Source: Gemmatimonadales bacterium (GTDB lineage: Bacteria; Gemmatimonadota; Gemmatimonadetes; Gemmatimonadales; GWC2-71-9). From it: a stretch of 64,000 nucleotides of DNA. Under the pieces are notes generated by a model that did no database searches, had not been told where the DNA came from, and worked only from the letters and a program-made list of their open reading frames with translations. This document shows positions 1 to 5,976 of the stretch, piece by piece (position 1 is the stretch's first letter; each line of letters starts with the position of its first letter). The position numbers and the translations under genes were made by a program. Where the stretch lies: positions 33,025 through 97,024 of the forward strand of contig DATJJY010000094.1 in NCBI GenBank assembly GCA_035491895.1, read 5' to 3'.

Positions 1-3000
1 CGCTCCTGATCGGGACCGAGGAAGGCGTCAAAGCGTCGCGGAACGGCGGTCTCGAGCCGTGGCAGCCGGTAGGCGGACGGATTTCGGGGCCGGTGTGGAC
101 GCTGTACCGGGACCGGGAGAGGAGCATGTGGTTCGGTACTCCGGACGCGCTCTATCACGCCACGCGGGGACGGCTCGACCGTTTCACGGCGGCCAACGGT
201 CTTCCCGCAGGCGGCGTCACGTCCATTCTCGAGACCCGGAACGGCCAGCTCTGGATCGGCGCGGACGGCGGCGGAGTGGCCCGGCTTGTCGGTGGTCGGT
301 TCCAGCAGTTCGCAGCCAAAGACGGCCTGTCGGATGATGCCGTCACCGCACTGCTCGAAGACTGGGAAGGAAGCCTCTGGGTCGGCACTCGGCACGGTGG
401 CCTCAACCGGTTTCGTGAGCCAATCCTCCCCATCTATACGCGGCGCGAGGGACTCTCCGCGAACGTCGTCTGGTCGGTCTACGGAGATCGGCAGCAGTCG
501 CTGTGGATCGGGACGCAGGACGGCGGCCTCGACCGTTTCCAGGACGGCCACTTTACCAGCTACACCGTCAAGGACGGCCTGCCGGGGAATTCGGTCTTCG
601 CCACGTTACAGACTTCAGATGGCGTGCTCTGGGCGGCCACCAACGCGGGGATCGCCCGATTGCGGCACGGCCGCTGGGAGAGCCTGGGGACCGGAGGGCC
701 GTTCCCGGGGGCGCGCGTGGCGGCTTTCCTGGAGGACCGGACCGGCGCGTTGTGGATCGGGGGCAACGGCCTGTATCGCTGGAAGGATGGCCGACTCCAC
801 GATTACACCCGGGAGGCCGGCATCTCCTCGGCCAATGTCCGCACCATCGTGGAAGATTCGGCCGGGAGTCTCTGGATCGGAACCCACGGACAGGGGCTGA
901 TCCGGCTCCAGAATGGCCGATTCACGATTCTCTCCTCCAAGCAGGGTCTCTCGAATGACGTGGTCGAGTCGTTGTACGCCGACCAGCATGGGCTCTGGGT
1001 GGGGACGGAGCGAGGTCTGAATCTGGTGCGGAACGGGCGCATCGCCGTGGTGCCGATCCACGCCACCGTGCTCCTGACCGACATGTTCGAGATTGTGCCG
1101 GACAACGTCGGGAATCTATGGCTGAGCTCCAATCAGGGATTGGTCAGTGCGAGCGAGCAGGCGTTGCTCGACGCCACCGCGGGAAAGCGGGAGAGCGTCG
1201 AGCTGCACGAGATGGTCTCGCTCGACGGCCGGCGCCGCATCGAGTTCAACGGTGCCTCGCAGAACGCCGGCTGGAAGAGCCCTGACGGGCGGCTCTGGTT
1301 TCCCAGCATCAAAGGGTTGGTGGTGGTCGACCCGGCCCACCTCTCGAGTAACACCGTCCCGCCGCCCGTCCACGTCGAACAACTGCTGGTGGACGGCCGC
1401 GCCGTCGACGTCGACGCAGCCGTGGATCTGCCGCCGAGCGGCGGCGGCCTCGAGCTGCACTATACCGCCACCAGCTTGCTGATTCCCGAGCGCGTCACCT
1501 TCCACTACCGGCTCGAAGGGTACGACCGGGACTGGGTCGACGCGGGTACGCGACGGGTGGCGTACTACACCCACGTGCCAGGTGGGCGGTATCGGTTCCA
1601 TGTCATCGCCGCCAACAACGACGGGGTGTGGAACGAGAGTGGTGCCGTACTGCCATTTCGGTTGGGGCTGCACGTCTACGAGACGTGGTGGTTCTACGCG
1701 CTCCTTGGATTGGCCGTAGCAGCGTCGGTGGTGTCCGTCTTTCGCTTTCGGGTGCGCCGCATCCAGCAACACGCCAGGCAACTGGCTGCGTTGGTCGAGG
1801 AGCGGACCGGTGAGCTCCAGCGTGAGGTCGAGGAACGGCGCCACGCGGAGGAGCGCTACCGGCACCTGTTCGACGCCAACCCGCAGCCCGTGTGGGTCAG
1901 CGATCGCGAAACACTCGCGTTCCTGGCCGTGAACGAGTCCGCGGTGCGGCACTACGGCTACACCCGTGAGGAGTTCTTCGCGATGCGCCTCACCGACCTG
2001 CAGCCGCCCGAGCAAGGGGCGGCCCTCCCGGAATGGATCCGCGCGGCGGGGGACGGGTGGCGGGGGACGAGCATGTGGCACCATCAAAAGAAGGACGGCG
2101 CGACCATCGAGGTCGAGGTGGCCGCCCATGCCTTCTCGTTTGCGGGCCGGCCGGCCGCCCTGATCGTCGCCGTGGACGTGACCGCGCGGCGCAACCTCGA
2201 AGACCGGATGCGCCAGGCGCAAAAGATGGAGGCCGTCGGCCAGCTGGCGGGAGGGATCGCCCACGACCTCAACAACGTCTTGACCGCCGTGATGGCGCAC
2301 GTGGACCTCGCCGTCACTGCGCTTCCACCCGACGCCACCCTGCTCGAAGACTTGACACAGGCCCAGGCCGCGGCGCATCGCGGCGCCGGTATGATCCGTA
2401 AGCTCCTCGGATTCAGTCGCCGCGAGCGGCTGGTCCTCAAACCGATGCGGTTGGAGCAGCTGGTGGGCGAGATCGCCGGCACGCTGCGCCGCATGCTGCC
2501 GGAGCGAATCGAGATCGCGGTGACCGAGGCGGCGAGCCTGCTGCCGGTGGCCGCGGATGCCGGCGCGGTGCAGCAGATGCTGCTCAATCTCGCGACGAAC
2601 GCCCGCGACGCGATGCCCGAGGGCGGGCGCTTGACGCTCGACCTGCAGCTGGCCACGCCGGCCGACGAGCTCATGGCGGCGCAGGACTGGGGCGCCCCGG
2701 GGCACTACGTCGTGCTGGCCGTGTCGGACACCGGATGTGGGATGGATGCCCGCACCCTGGCCCGGATCTTCGAGCCGTACTTCTCGACGAAGCCGCAGGA
2801 TCAGGGAACCGGACTCGGCATGGCCATGGTGTACGGCCTGATGAAGCAGCACCTCGGCTTCGTGCTCGTGCACAGTGTGCCGGGCACCGGGACCACGGTG
2901 CGGTTGTACTTCCCGGTCACGGCGGAATCGGTCCCGGAACCCGCGTCCCGGGTGCAGCACGCGGCGCAGAGCGGGAATCAGACGATCCTCGTGGTGGAGG

Positions 3001-3344
3001 ATCAGGAGTCGGTCCGCACCGCTGCGATCCGCACGCTGACCCGGTTCGGCTATCAGGTGCTGTCCGCAACCGACGGCGAAGAAGGACTGCAAGTGTGGCG
3101 CGCCAACGCGGACACCGTCGACCTGATCGTCTCGGACGCCATCATGCCGCGGATGGGCGGACTGGCCCTCTACGAGGCGGTGAGCCGGGATCGCACGGGG
3201 GTTCGCTTCCTGCTCACCAGCGGGTACACCGGCGAGGAGGTGCGCAAGAGCGCACCGGTCACGGCGGATCTGGTGTTTCTGTCGAAGCCCTGGACGGTCA
3301 GTGAACTGCTCACGGCGGTGCGCAAGATCCTGAAGCCGGCCTGA
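1..3344 (+). CDS. Hybrid sensor histidine kinase (beta-propeller/Y_Y_Y-type sensor, TM, PAS, HisKA, HATPase_c, C-terminal receiver); 5' end outside window
   Basis: ORF 93..3344 stays open in the same frame back to nt 3 (LLIGTEEGVKASRNGG...), so the N-terminus is cut by the window edge. Repeated ..LWIGT..GL.R.. propeller-type motifs. TM segment WWFYALLGLAVAASVVSVF. H-box GGIAHDLNNVLT. G-boxes DTGCGMD and GTGLGMAMV. Receiver ILVVEDQESVR...DLIVSDAIMPRMGG...LSKP. Confidence 0.93.
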   Translation, partial: LLIGTEEGVKASRNGGLEPWQPVGGRISGPVWTLYRDRERSMWFGTPDALYHATRGRLDRFTAANGLPAGGVTSILETRNGQLWIGADGGGVARLVGGRFQQFAAKDGLSDDAVTALLEDWEGSLWVGTRHGGLNRFREPILPIYTRREGLSANVVWSVYGDRQQSLWIGTQDGGLDRFQDGHFTSYTVKDGLPGNSVFATLQTSDGVLWAATNAGIARLRHGRWESLGTGGPFPGARVAAFLEDRTGALWIGGNGLYRWKDGRLHDYTREAGISSANVRTIVEDSAGSLWIGTHGQGLIRLQNGRFTILSSKQGLSNDVVESLYADQHGLWVGTERGLNLVRNGRIAVVPIHATVLLTDMFEIVPDNVGNLWLSSNQGLVSASEQALLDATAGKRESVELHEMVSLDGRRRIEFNGASQNAGWKSPDGRLWFPSIKGLVVVDPAHLSSNTVPPPVHVEQLLVDGRAVDVDAAVDLPPSGGGLELHYTATSLLIPERVTFHYRLEGYDRDWVDAGTRRVAYYTHVPGGRYRFHVIAANNDGVWNESGAVLPFRLGLHVYETWWFYALLGLAVAASVVSVFRFRVRRIQQHARQLAALVEERTGELQREVEERRHAEERYRHLFDANPQPVWVSDRETLAFLAVNESAVRHYGYTREEFFAMRLTDLQPPEQGAALPEWIRAAGDGWRGTSMWHHQKKDGATIEVEVAAHAFSFAGRPAALIVAVDVTARRNLEDRMRQAQKMEAVGQLAGGIAHDLNNVLTAVMAHVDLAVTALPPDATLLEDLTQAQAAAHRGAGMIRKLLGFSRRERLVLKPMRLEQLVGEIAGTLRRMLPERIEIAVTEAASLLPVAADAGAVQQMLLNLATNARDAMPEGGRLTLDLQLATPADELMAAQDWGAPGHYVVLAVSDTGCGMDARTLARIFEPYFSTKPQDQGTGLGMAMVYGLMKQHLGFVLVHSVPGTGTTVRLYFPVTAESVPEPASRVQHAAQSGNQTILVVEDQESVRTAAIRTLTRFGYQVLSATDGEEGLQVWRANADTVDLIVSDAIMPRMGGLALYEAVSRDRTGVRFLLTSGYTGEEVRKSAPVTADLVFLSKPWTVSELLTAVRKILKPA

Positions 3345-3423
3345 TGCAGGGACTCTAGTAGAGAGGTTGGGTGGCGGGCCCCCGCATCCGACTCGTGTGC
3401 GGAGACCCACCGACCCGCTGTCC

Positions 3424-4542
3424 TCAGCTCGCCGGCTTGCGCGAGCCGGACCGTTCCCAGTTGACGAACAGGAACCCACCCGGCGCGTCGAACTTCGGCT
3501 CTCCCTGCCCGGGGAGAATCTGGAGCTGCAGCTCATCGACCTTGTTCTTGGAGCAGTCCCAGCAGGCGAGTGCGTAATCGCCGTCCCGCCGCGTGCGCGA
3601 CAGCAGCATCACGTGCACCTGCGCGTTGTCGGTCACCAGGCTGTCGTTCTTGTAGAGGTGTCCGAACGCCCACAGCGCCACGGCGCTGTTGATCGTCGGC
3701 ACGAGCGGCGTATGCACGGCGGTATTGCCGTGGTAGTACAACCCCAGGATCACGCCACCGAAGCGCGGATGATGCGGCACGTCCTTCGTCTGCACGCGAT
3801 CGAGCACGAGCTTCCAGCGCGCCCCGTCCTGGGTGGTGAAATCGGCAGTACCGTCCACCGAATCACGCACTGCGCCTTTGTCCCAGGCCGTGAACGAGAA
3901 GTTGCCCGCGATCGGGGTCACGTTGTTCGAGTAGGGACCGTTTTTCACCTGCGACTCGAGCCCTTCCCGTTCGTTGCCGAACTGCTGGAGAATGGGAGCG
4001 GCGCTATCGGGGAAAGGGAAGGGGCCGGGAAGGATCTGGATGACGGGTCCTCCACTCGTCACCCGGATCGCCTGGACGCTCGCTGACGGCTCGTGCATTT
4101 CGTGATTGAGCGTTGCGCTGGCCGGCGCGGCGCTGTGGCCCAATGTCGGCGCGTTCTGGGCGCCCACGACTCTCAGATGCGTCTCCATACCCAGGTGTTT
4201 GTGCGAGTCCTCCCCCACCGGGCAGTAGACGTCATAGGTACCGGGCTTGAGCGTGAGCTGCAGTGTCGCACTCGAGCCCGGCTGAATGACGGCGGTCTCT
4301 TGTTCGACACCCTCTCCCTCGACCTCGAAGGCATGGGGGATGGTGCCGGCGTTCGTGACGCTGAACGTCACGGCGCCCGCCAGGACGGTGGCTTGCGAGA
4401 GCTCGACTTTCCATTCGGACAACTTGGCGCTGACCGCGGCAGGGTCGCTCGGCGCGCGGTGTGCCGGAGTCCCGGCGAGCGCCAGGGCGGCAAGCAAGAG
4501 CCGGCCGGCGCTGTGGGACGCAATGGCGTGCAAGGGGTGCAT
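3424..4542 (-). CDS. Secreted cupredoxin-domain protein fused to an unrecognised ~230-aa C-terminal domain
   Basis: 372-aa ORF with a GGAGGA RBS just upstream of the ATG (cat at 4540-4542). Signal-peptide-like N-terminus (LLLAALALAGTPA). N-terminal ~90 aa have candidate type-1 copper ligands: H in TIPHAFEVEG, and C/H/M in VYCPVGEDSHKHLGM. The remainder has no motif I recognise. Confidence 0.85.
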   Translation of the reverse strand: MHPLHAIASHSAGRLLLAALALAGTPAHRAPSDPAAVSAKLSEWKVELSQATVLAGAVTFSVTNAGTIPHAFEVEGEGVEQETAVIQPGSSATLQLTLKPGTYDVYCPVGEDSHKHLGMETHLRVVGAQNAPTLGHSAAPASATLNHEMHEPSASVQAIRVTSGGPVIQILPGPFPFPDSAAPILQQFGNEREGLESQVKNGPYSNNVTPIAGNFSFTAWDKGAVRDSVDGTADFTTQDGARWKLVLDRVQTKDVPHHPRFGGVILGLYYHGNTAVHTPLVPTINSAVALWAFGHLYKNDSLVTDNAQVHVMLLSRTRRDGDYALACWDCSKNKVDELQLQILPGQGEPKFDAPGGFLFVNWERSGSRKPAS

Positions 4543-4590
4543 ACGTGATCTTCCTCCAGAGAGAGTGCGACGGCAGTGTGGTCAGTGCTG

Positions 4591-4618
4591 GAGACTCCAG
4601 GCGCGGCGGGGTTATTCC
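4591..4618 (-). promoter_or_regulatory. Candidate ECF-type promoter for the cupredoxin-fusion gene (GGAATAA-N16-GTCTC)
   Basis: Reverse complement of 4591-4618 reads GGAATAA ccccgccgcgcctgga GTCTC. It lies ~50 nt upstream of the ATG at 4542. It mirrors the + strand copy 4 nt away. Confidence 0.45.
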
Positions 4619-4622
4619 GCCG

Positions 4623-4650
4623 GGAATAATCCCGCCGGTGCCTGAGTCTC
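4623..4650 (+). promoter_or_regulatory. Candidate autoregulated ECF-type promoter for the sigma/anti-sigma operon (GGAATAA-N16-GTCTC)
   Basis: Reads GGAATAA tcccgccggtgcctga GTCTC, ~33 nt upstream of the GTG at 4683. The geometry resembles the GGAAC-N16/17-GTCT class of ECF promoters. Confidence 0.45.
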
Positions 4651-4682
4651 CTCTGAAGGCCGACCAGACATTGTGAGGGCCG

Positions 4683-5207
4683 GTGGACTCAAGCGCGCTG
4701 GCGCGATTCGAAGCCGTCGTGTTGCCGCACTTGGACGCCGCCTACACGCTGGCCCGCTATCTGACGAGGAATGCGCACGATGCCGAAGACGTCGTGCAGG
4801 ACGCCTGTCTGCGGGCGCTCAAGTATTTCGACGGGTTCCGCGGGGAAGCAGCAAGCGCGCGCGCCTGGCTGCTCACCATCGTGCGCAACACCGCCCACAC
4901 GTGGCGCGGGCGCCAGCGTGGCGACGCGCTCACCACGGAGTTCGACGAGACGCAGCACAGCGAGGCTGTGGTGGATGACAGTCCCGAGGGACTGCTGCTG
5001 AAGCAGGACGCGAAGCACACCCTCGATCGTGCACTCGAACAGTTGGCGCCGGAATTCCGGGAGGTGATCGTGTTGCGCGAGCTCGAGGGATTGTCGTACA
5101 AGGAGATCAGCGAGGTGGCGGGCGTGCCGGTCGGCACGGTGATGTCGCGGCTGTCGCGGGCCCGCGCGCGTCTCCAGGAGGCGCTGCGTGAAGCGGAGGG
5201 GCGCTGA
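4683..5207 (+). CDS. ECF-family RNA polymerase sigma-70 factor
   Basis: 174 aa. Region 2: DAEDVVQDACLRALKYF...ARAWLLTIVRN. Region 4 HTH: REVIVLRELEGLSYKEISEVAGVPVGTVMSRLSRAR. Confidence 0.93.
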   Translation: MDSSALARFEAVVLPHLDAAYTLARYLTRNAHDAEDVVQDACLRALKYFDGFRGEAASARAWLLTIVRNTAHTWRGRQRGDALTTEFDETQHSEAVVDDSPEGLLLKQDAKHTLDRALEQLAPEFREVIVLRELEGLSYKEISEVAGVPVGTVMSRLSRARARLQEALREAEGR

Positions 5208-5976
5208 GGTGATCCATCCCGGCGAAGCACAACTGGACCTGTACCTGGACGGCGAGCTGGCTGCGGTCGATGCGCGCGAGCTGGAAGCGCACCTCGCACA
5301 GTGCGCCGAATGCGCCCGATTCCGGGAAGAGCGGCTCGCGCTGCGCGCGGCGATCAAGGCGAACGTTCCGACGTTCGAGGCATCGGACACCCTGCGTCAG
5401 CGCGTGCGGGCGTCCCTCCGCACGGCGGCGTCGGGCCAAACGCAGCGTCGCTTCACCTTCGGCGGCTGGTGGCGTCCACTGGCAATGGCCGCGTCCCTGG
5501 CGATCGTCGCGATCGGCAGCTGGAACCTGGCCATCGAGCGTGCGGCCGGCTCGGCCCTCGCCGATGACCTGCTGGCAAGCCATATCCGCTCACTGATGCC
5601 CGGTCACCTCACGGATGTGCTTTCTTCGGACCAGCACACGGTGAAGCCCTGGTTCAACGGCAGGCTCGACTACTCCCCTCCGGTCCACGACTTCGCCGGG
5701 CGCGGCTACCCCCTGCTCGGAGGACGACTCGACTACGTGGATGAGCGGACGGTCGCGGTGCTCGCGTATGGCCGGCGACAGCACCTGATCAACGTGTACC
5801 TGTGGCCCGCCACGCGCAGTCCGAGCGTTGCGCCCAAGACGCGCGACCGCCAGGGCTATCACGAGCTCCACTGGACCACGGCGGACTACACCTACTGGGT
5901 CGTCTCGGACCTTGGCTTGGCGGAGCTGCACGATTTCGTGCAGCTGGTCCAGCAGGCAGACACGCTCGCGCGATAG
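5188..5976 (+). CDS. Anti-sigma factor (zf-HC2 N-terminus, single TM, periplasmic C-terminal domain)
   Basis: Putative zinc-finger motif HLAQCAECARF. TM segment WWRPLAMAASLAIVAIGSW. Located directly after the sigma gene. The start is ambiguous: GTG 5188 overlaps the sigma gene by 20 nt, while in-frame GTG 5209 follows a GGAGGGG RBS. Confidence 0.85.
   Translation: MKRRGAEVIHPGEAQLDLYLDGELAAVDARELEAHLAQCAECARFREERLALRAAIKANVPTFEASDTLRQRVRASLRTAASGQTQRRFTFGGWWRPLAMAASLAIVAIGSWNLAIERAAGSALADDLLASHIRSLMPGHLTDVLSSDQHTVKPWFNGRLDYSPPVHDFAGRGYPLLGGRLDYVDERTVAVLAYGRRQHLINVYLWPATRSPSVAPKTRDRQGYHELHWTTADYTYWVVSDLGLAELHDFVQLVQQADTLAR

Follow-up and report, generated by a model that had tools for sequence, protein, structure and literature searches.

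The window, that is, the whole stretch of 64,000 nucleotides that was analysed, contains an ECF sigma factor gene and, on the opposite strand, a gene for a cupredoxin-fusion protein, and the two genes diverge from a short intergenic region (Table 1). The sigma gene is followed by an anti-sigma factor gene, an order that was also found at the ortholog loci. All three reading frames had the extents and orientations that were originally claimed for them. The anti-sigma factor carries the zinc-binding motif HLAQCAEC (HxxxCxxC, the ZAS motif), then one hydrophobic segment, WWRPLAMAASLAIVAIGSW, and then an extracytoplasmic domain of ~140 aa that matches no known family. When the anti-sigma sequence was searched against the PDB, only weak matches were found, to an anti-sigma domain. 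As listed, its reading frame overlaps the sigma gene by 20 nt (window 5188-5209). In many orthologs the alignment begins no earlier than residue ~8, so translation may in fact start from the GTG at 5209, which immediately follows the sigma stop codon.

Table 1. Genes and predicted promoter elements at the divergent sigma-cupredoxin locus (positions in the window)
Feature	Position	Strand	Description
ECF sigma factor gene	4683..5207	+	174 aa, GTG start; Pfam Sigma70_r2 and Sigma70_r4_2
Ribosome-binding site of the sigma gene	4675-4679	+	GAGGG
Anti-sigma factor gene	5188..5976	+	262 aa, N-terminal zf-HC2
Cupredoxin-fusion gene, predicted target	3424..4542	-	372 aa, signal-peptide-like N-terminus, Cupredoxin_1 domain
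Ribosome-binding site of the cupredoxin gene	reverse complement of 4550-4557	-	GGAGGAAG
Predicted ECF promoter, + arm	4623..4650	+	predicted to drive the sigma/anti-sigma operon
-35 box of the + arm	4623-4629	+	(G)GGAATAA, with G4622 in front
Spacer of the + arm		+	16 nt, tcccgccggtgcctga
-10 element of the + arm	4646-4650	+	GTCTC
Predicted ECF promoter, - arm	4591..4618	-	predicted to drive the cupredoxin-fusion gene
-35 box of the - arm	reverse complement of 4612-4618	-	GGAATAA
Spacer of the - arm		-	16 nt, ccccgccgcgcctgga
-10 element of the - arm	reverse complement of 4591-4595	-	GTCTC
Gap between the -35 boxes	4619..4622		4 nt, GCCG

In the cupredoxin-fusion protein the cupredoxin domain is N-terminal, and residues H70, C107, H114 and M119, which form a type-1 copper ligand set, are invariant. 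More than 2000 close relatives were found, and those that carry a name originate from Gemmatimonadetes MAGs. A PDB sequence search with this protein gave weak matches only, to cupredoxins, and the AlphaFold model of the full protein had a mean pLDDT of 39.9 and was unusable. Convergent with the cupredoxin gene is a reading frame for a 1083-aa hybrid histidine kinase (window 93-3344, plus strand; Reg_prop, Y_Y_Y, PAS, HisKA, HATPase_c and receiver domains). An 806-aa reading frame on the opposite strand (window 1116-3536, minus strand) had no family match and is probably a shadow ORF of G+C-rich sequence.

Two exact matches to GGAATAA-N16-GTCTC were found in the 64-kb window, compared with 0.01 expected from 100 dinucleotide-preserving shuffles, and 0 of the 100 shuffles reached two matches. 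The original prediction of this motif on both strands, with the two boxes 4 nt apart, was thus exact. When up to two mismatches were allowed, just two further matches appeared in the window, which is not above chance, and the relaxed pattern GGAATA-N17-GTC had no window sites besides the twin pair. A search for additional regulon members through motif copies within the 64-kb window accordingly yielded none beyond chance. The imperfect palindrome that had been described for the 60 bp was also confirmed; it consists of ungapped 29-nt arms (4590-4618 and 4623-4651) with 79% complementarity. The end of the + arm lies 32 nt from the sigma start, and that of the - arm 48 nt from the cupredoxin start. 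No sigma-70-like promoter or terminator was found in the intergenic region.

The arms have the bipartite form of ECF promoters, with a -35 box of the GGAA(C/T) type, a -10 element of the GT(C/T) type and a fixed spacing of ~16-18 nt. One box is located upstream of the ECF sigma/anti-sigma operon and is co-oriented with it, and a copy precedes the neighbouring target gene. Since Pecf12_up807, whose sequence is given in -60..+20 coordinates, has GTT at -9..-7, we infer that transcription would start at ~4655 (+/-2) from the + arm and at ~4586 (+/-2) from the - arm. The hexamer GAAGGC at window 4655-4660, on the predicted sigma-ward start site, is conserved. A nearly invariant G was also seen in the sigma-ward spacer at window 4634 (column 17 of alignment A2), five nt past the -35 heptamer; no such residue occurs in the spacer on the cupredoxin side.

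Conservation was analyzed in 80 species-level Gemmatimonadota genome loci that encode the cupredoxin protein, which gave 81 sequences with the window. The divergent layout of sigma/anti-sigma and cupredoxin genes was kept in ~62 of the 80 loci. A loose scan for GGAA-N-GTC detected the twin boxes in most of the loci. Strict twins, for which we required GGAAT-N18-GTC on each strand and a separation of no more than 8 nt, were present in 61 of the 81 sequences (window included). Their inter-box gap was mostly 4 nt (47 twins), with 2, 3 and 5 nt in 9, 4 and 1 twins, respectively. When whole intergenic regions were aligned by MAFFT without anchoring on the motif, the invariant blocks were TTATTCCCG..GGAATA, both GAC/GTC triplets and the two ribosome-binding sites, and the spacers were variable. 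The + arm reads GGGAATAA(A/T)-N-GTC(T/C) in orthologs; before cupredoxin orthologs the - arm reads GGAATA(A/G/C)-N-GTCT(C/T), including at loci without a partner box. The -10 element was GTC in nearly all orthologs. Across the 80 loci, x in GGAATA-Nx-GTC was 17 in 150 of 162 occurrences, against a chance expectation of ~2 at x = 17 (a back-of-envelope estimate at 66% G+C).

The two arms also occur apart from each other. Where the sigma gene is absent or another gene is inserted, a lone box is found ~45-50 nt upstream of the cupredoxin start. Some loci have a gene for a DUF2214-like membrane protein or a plastocyanin-like lipoprotein inserted between sigma and cupredoxin; there, the twin boxes remain with the sigma gene, and a separate single box precedes the cupredoxin gene. 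Conversely, five twins (loci L011, L025, L033, L054 and L055) have no adjacent sigma gene, indicating that the recognising sigma need not be encoded next door. At L011 (~3230-3340) the sigma gene is cut to its first ~13 codons (MESSELARFEAVV...), followed by unrelated sequence, and the twin boxes are intact. Locus L055 shares a MAG with L001, which encodes the sigma.

Among known systems, the sigma factor came closest to group ECF12. Its best NCBIfam family was PRK12533 (NF009185), at 210.6 bits, below the cutoff of 248, compared with 309.6 bits for the Ralstonia homolog, and its best solved relative was M. tuberculosis SigH. We compared it with a reference library of 86 sigmas from 43 groups, two each (Rhodius 2013, PMC3817407 supplement), from which the ECF2xx groups were omitted. 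In this two-per-group library without ECF2xx, the best BLASTP matches were ECF12_808 (41%, 113 bits) and ECF12_807 (40%, 105 bits), and ECF02 came next at 87 bits. The score to TIGR02947 (SigH_actino) was 106.8 against a cutoff of 251.6, and the anti-sigma factor reached 40.9 bits with antisig_RsrA, whose cutoff is 62.5. The main text of Casas-Pastor et al. 2021 mentions neither Gemmatimonadetes nor cupredoxin.

The likeness to ECF12 (SigR/SigH/RsrA-RshA) extends to the promoter and the anti-sigma factor. ECF12 promoters have the form GGAAT-N18-19-GTT (PMC10012870), as does Pecf12_up807 (PMC3817407 supplement). The window arms share the -35 core GGAAT and the 18 nt to the G of the -10 element, the anti-sigma factor has the ZAS motif HxxxCxxC, and the sigma operon of the window, like those of ECF12, appears autoregulated. 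In contrast, the -10 element is GTC in the window and GTT in ECF12, the host is a gemmatimonad, and the anti-sigma factor is membrane-anchored with its extracytoplasmic domain, whereas RsrA is small and soluble. A small soluble anti-sigma factor of the RsrA/RshA type was considered and rejected, since the window protein has 262 aa, a hydrophobic segment and a C-terminal domain of ~140 aa. The system would work like an ECF12 member and is probably related to one; because its anti-sigma factor is not RsrA-like in architecture, we did not file it as a plain member.

A second precedent is ECF26, for which a consensus of -35 GGAATA and -10 GT has been given and in which divergent target genes are common (PMC6180224). 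The validated ECF26 promoter Pecf26_up601, TGGAATAA-N16-GTTTA (PMC3817407 supplement), has the identical -35 heptamer GGAATAA and 16-nt spacer, and ECF26 anti-sigma factors likewise combine an anti-sigma domain, a transmembrane segment and a periplasmic domain. The sigma encoded at the rpoE6 position of S. meliloti pSymA, however, is no more than 36% identical to the window sigma. Membership in ECF26, which the promoter consensus had suggested, was rejected on the sigma sequence; ECF26_837 ranked 11 at 68.6 bits, compared with 113 bits for ECF12_808. That S. meliloti sigma (RpoE6), used as a positive control, found ECF26 first (109 and 105 bits). The S. meliloti RpoE1/RpoE4 regulon includes the cupredoxin azu2 (PMC6180224). 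The original prediction had likened the arms to GGAAC-N16/17-GTCT. The ECF-promoter geometry implied by this comparison held, and the closest precedents are instead GGAAT-N18-GTT of ECF12 and GGAATAA-N16-GT of ECF26.

The closest named sigma family is found at the betaproteobacterial PRK12533 loci of Ralstonia, Cupriavidus and Caballeronia (~47-53% identity). Upstream of their sigma genes, these loci carry GGAATA boxes in divergent orientation, with a -10 element GTA or GTT after 16 nt, and the divergent partner in Ralstonia is a metallophosphoesterase, as in the more distant gemmatimonad-type twins. They differ from the window in that the boxes are ~30-36 nt apart, compared with 4 nt, with an A/T tract between them, and in the target gene. 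Divergent GGAATA boxes ~30-36 nt apart were seen in Ralstonia (L081 3370-3440), in Cupriavidus (L082 3385-3455) and on a Gemmatirosa plasmid (L083), and the A/T tract lies between the boxes of the two betaproteobacterial loci, L081 and L082. The divergent gene at L081 is annotated as a serine/threonine protein phosphatase.

We also scanned metagenome sequences with the pattern GAC-N17-TATTCC-N4-GGAATA-N17-GTC, without any gene information, and at least 120 stretches matched. The matches listed comprised 80 loci with 81 twin sites, of which 72 adjoin a homolog of the sigma gene, the cupredoxin gene or both, and 51 adjoin both. The remaining twins among these listed matches include some beside more distant homologs of the sigma (50-57% identity), whose divergent partner is a TAT-signal metallophosphoesterase. 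A second twin of the same geometry was found between an MPN/JAMM-like gene (HSHPGG motif) and a gene for a DUF2214-like membrane protein at L139, L087, L096, L100, L132 and L136. At L139 the twins are at 470-525 and 2397-2452, the second twin being 1.9 kb from the sigma-cupredoxin twin. The twin geometry also occurs at a sigma and DUF2214 pair.

These sites bear on the size of the regulon, which had been predicted to be minimal. Within this window the prediction stands: there is no further motif copy, and tblastn searches of the window for homologs of the DUF2214-like, MPN-like and metallophosphoesterase proteins found none. It does not extend to relatives, where the box also precedes DUF2214-like, MPN/JAMM-like and plastocyanin-like lipoprotein genes and second cupredoxin paralogs; because relatives carry the same box before these extra genes, the term minimal regulon has to be limited to the window.

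Taken together, the conserved boxes and spacing, the lone boxes before relocated cupredoxin genes and the match with ECF12/ECF26 geometry support the proposed reading of the element as ECF promoters. Very probably, the 60-bp element represents back-to-back divergent promoters that are both recognised by the adjacent ECF sigma and form an auto-amplifying sigma/anti-sigma switch. We infer recognition by the adjacent sigma and weighed it against the improbable case that the ECF promoters are read by a paralogous ECF sigma encoded elsewhere. Such a sigma would accommodate the five twins that persist where the adjacent sigma gene is missing or only 13 codons long, as well as the fact that GGAAT-type -35 boxes are common to ECF12 and ECF26. 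In the gene-blind scan, however, 66 of the 81 twin sites among the matches listed abut a homolog of the window's sigma, and for L055 the same MAG does encode this sigma, at L001. The sigma/anti-sigma operons of ECF groups with anti-sigma factors are, moreover, autoregulated as a rule (PMC6180224).

The inverted repeat TTATTCC-N4-GGAATAA could alternatively serve a dimeric helix-turn-helix regulator as the operator from which both genes are controlled, with the promoters located elsewhere. Half-sites of 7 nt with a 4-nt gap are typical of operators, and 47 of the 61 twin loci share this gap length. An operator, however, has no need of the GTC that follows each half-site at a constant 17 nt in 150 of 162 occurrences. 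The distance between half-sites varies from 2-5 nt to ~30-36 nt (Ralstonia, Cupriavidus and Gemmatirosa), and isolated half-sites with their GTC precede relocated cupredoxin genes. The half-sites of the operator of a dimeric factor would keep a fixed distance and act only as a pair; the varying distance and the lone half-sites therefore led us to reject this candidate. The region has no sigma-70-type promoter to be regulated, and the motif equals known ECF12/ECF26 promoters. An operator is thus highly improbable.

The palindrome might also act as a structure, whether as a cruciform in DNA or, in RNA, as a hairpin of the leader, attenuator, sRNA or repeat-element type. RNA folding of the region gave -53 kcal/mol with z = -7.7, the 29-nt arms are 79% complementary, and an Rfam search of the intergenic region gave weak hairpin-like matches (E = 0.05-0.5), all far below their gathering scores. 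To compare conservation of the boxes with conservation of base-pairing, as the original prediction had proposed, we used 47 aligned ortholog 60-mers and a shuffle control. Palindrome positions were paired in 70.7% of cells, compared with 69.7% after shuffling; the spacer columns were mostly unpaired, and covariation was not clearly above the control. Spacer identity was 6.89/16 within a locus and 6.47/16 between loci. Thus, the boxes were conserved, the spacers were free and total pairing equalled the shuffle control, so the orthologs did not conserve hairpin potential alone. The window's own spacers were 10/16 alike, in the top ~11% of loci, which is in the upper tail but not outside the distribution; this unusual likeness leaves room for a lineage-specific structural role. 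A structured RNA or intrinsic terminator was rejected, there being no excess pairing, no T-tract terminator and no Rfam match near its gathering score. With the element lying between divergent gene starts, where transcripts from the predicted starts would exclude it, and with spacers scarcely more alike within than between loci, a structural function is hardly credible. The palindrome is best explained as a side effect of two promoters mirroring each other across 4 nt and not as a selected hairpin.

Additional information on the predicted target came from the C-terminal part of the cupredoxin-fusion protein (residues ~155-372, window 3427-4080, minus strand), which matched no Pfam family and had no significant fold match in the PDB. 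The family of this domain is small, with 210 clusters at E <= 0.001, and its members either stand alone (~246 aa) or are joined to a module of the cupredoxin, cytochrome c or fasciclin type. CWDC (a CxxC motif), HHPRFGG and YYHGNT are invariant among close orthologs, and the CWDC, FGG and H-G-T cores remained invariant when divergent standalone homologs were added. On the basis of these motifs, the domain may be an uncharacterised periplasmic redox domain, and the copper ligand set together with CWDC would point to periplasmic copper or thiol-redox chemistry of the target.

One distant standalone homolog of the domain, P0271 (L205 4344-7000, on a 538-kb metagenome contig), adjoins an ECF12-type sigma gene that has an 84-aa ZAS anti-sigma factor beside it. 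GGAAC-N18-GTTGG was found upstream of both the P0271 gene and the neighbouring ECF12-type sigma gene, which provides independent support for the reading of the window element as promoters. At this locus a Thioredoxin_9 gene is divergent from the P0271 gene, and the intergenic region upstream of the P0271 gene contains a run of ~23-nt tandem repeats (GGTCCGCGGCGGATCGCGGCGAG-like).

In the promoter reading, the system would operate as follows. In the resting state, the membrane-anchored zinc-finger anti-sigma factor would hold the sigma factor. An extracytoplasmic or redox signal, plausibly a copper- or thiol-related one, would release the sigma, which would then direct RNA polymerase to both arms, so that they are fired together. 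Transcription from the right arm would produce the sigma/anti-sigma operon and thereby positive autoregulation, and transcription from the left arm would produce the secreted cupredoxin fusion. Each promoter would be self-contained, with GGAATA(A) as the -35 box, GTC as the -10 element and a fixed spacing of 17 nt between GGAATA and GTC. The centres of the two GGAAT cores are separated by only ~9 bp, which may leave too little room for two holoenzymes at once; strictly simultaneous firing is therefore not assured.

This is the expected architecture for an autoregulated ECF system, a stress-response switch of a common type, and is not surprising. Divergent promoter pairs that share one short intergenic region and are co-regulated are described as common in bacteria (PMC4469952). 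Like E. coli-type divergent transcription units, the window has opposite-strand promoters in one short intergenic region that would be regulated together; unlike them, its arms share one box and presumably one alternative sigma, and their -35 boxes are 2-5 nt apart across the family. Only the tight abutment of the -35 boxes and the recurrence of the same geometry at other gene pairs are unusual. Literature searches for GGAATAA with ECF and for back-to-back ECF promoters found no ECF example with 2-5 nt spacing.

The back-to-back layout at 2-5 nt could be a selected bidirectional ECF promoter module and not an accident of a short intergenic region, an idea that we regard as unlikely. The twin geometry at other gene pairs is compatible with such a module, and inheritance through duplication explains it equally well. 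If the module were real, a pair of sigma region-4 domains would be placed next to each other, in the manner of the two halves of a dimeric repressor. The holoenzymes would then help or exclude each other, which would set either a fixed ratio or an alternation between the sigma/anti-sigma operon and the effector.

To our knowledge, almost no promoters have been mapped in the Gemmatimonadota, an abundant soil phylum. The present analysis provides a comparatively supported consensus, (G)GGAATA-N17-GTC, for an ECF sigma family of this phylum and defines a small regulon for which MAGs can be searched. It would tie that regulon to a secreted cupredoxin that is fused with an uncharacterised domain containing a conserved CxxC motif. 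The tight geometry of the twin boxes also makes the locus a convenient natural system for asking whether 60 bp can accommodate two ECF holoenzymes.
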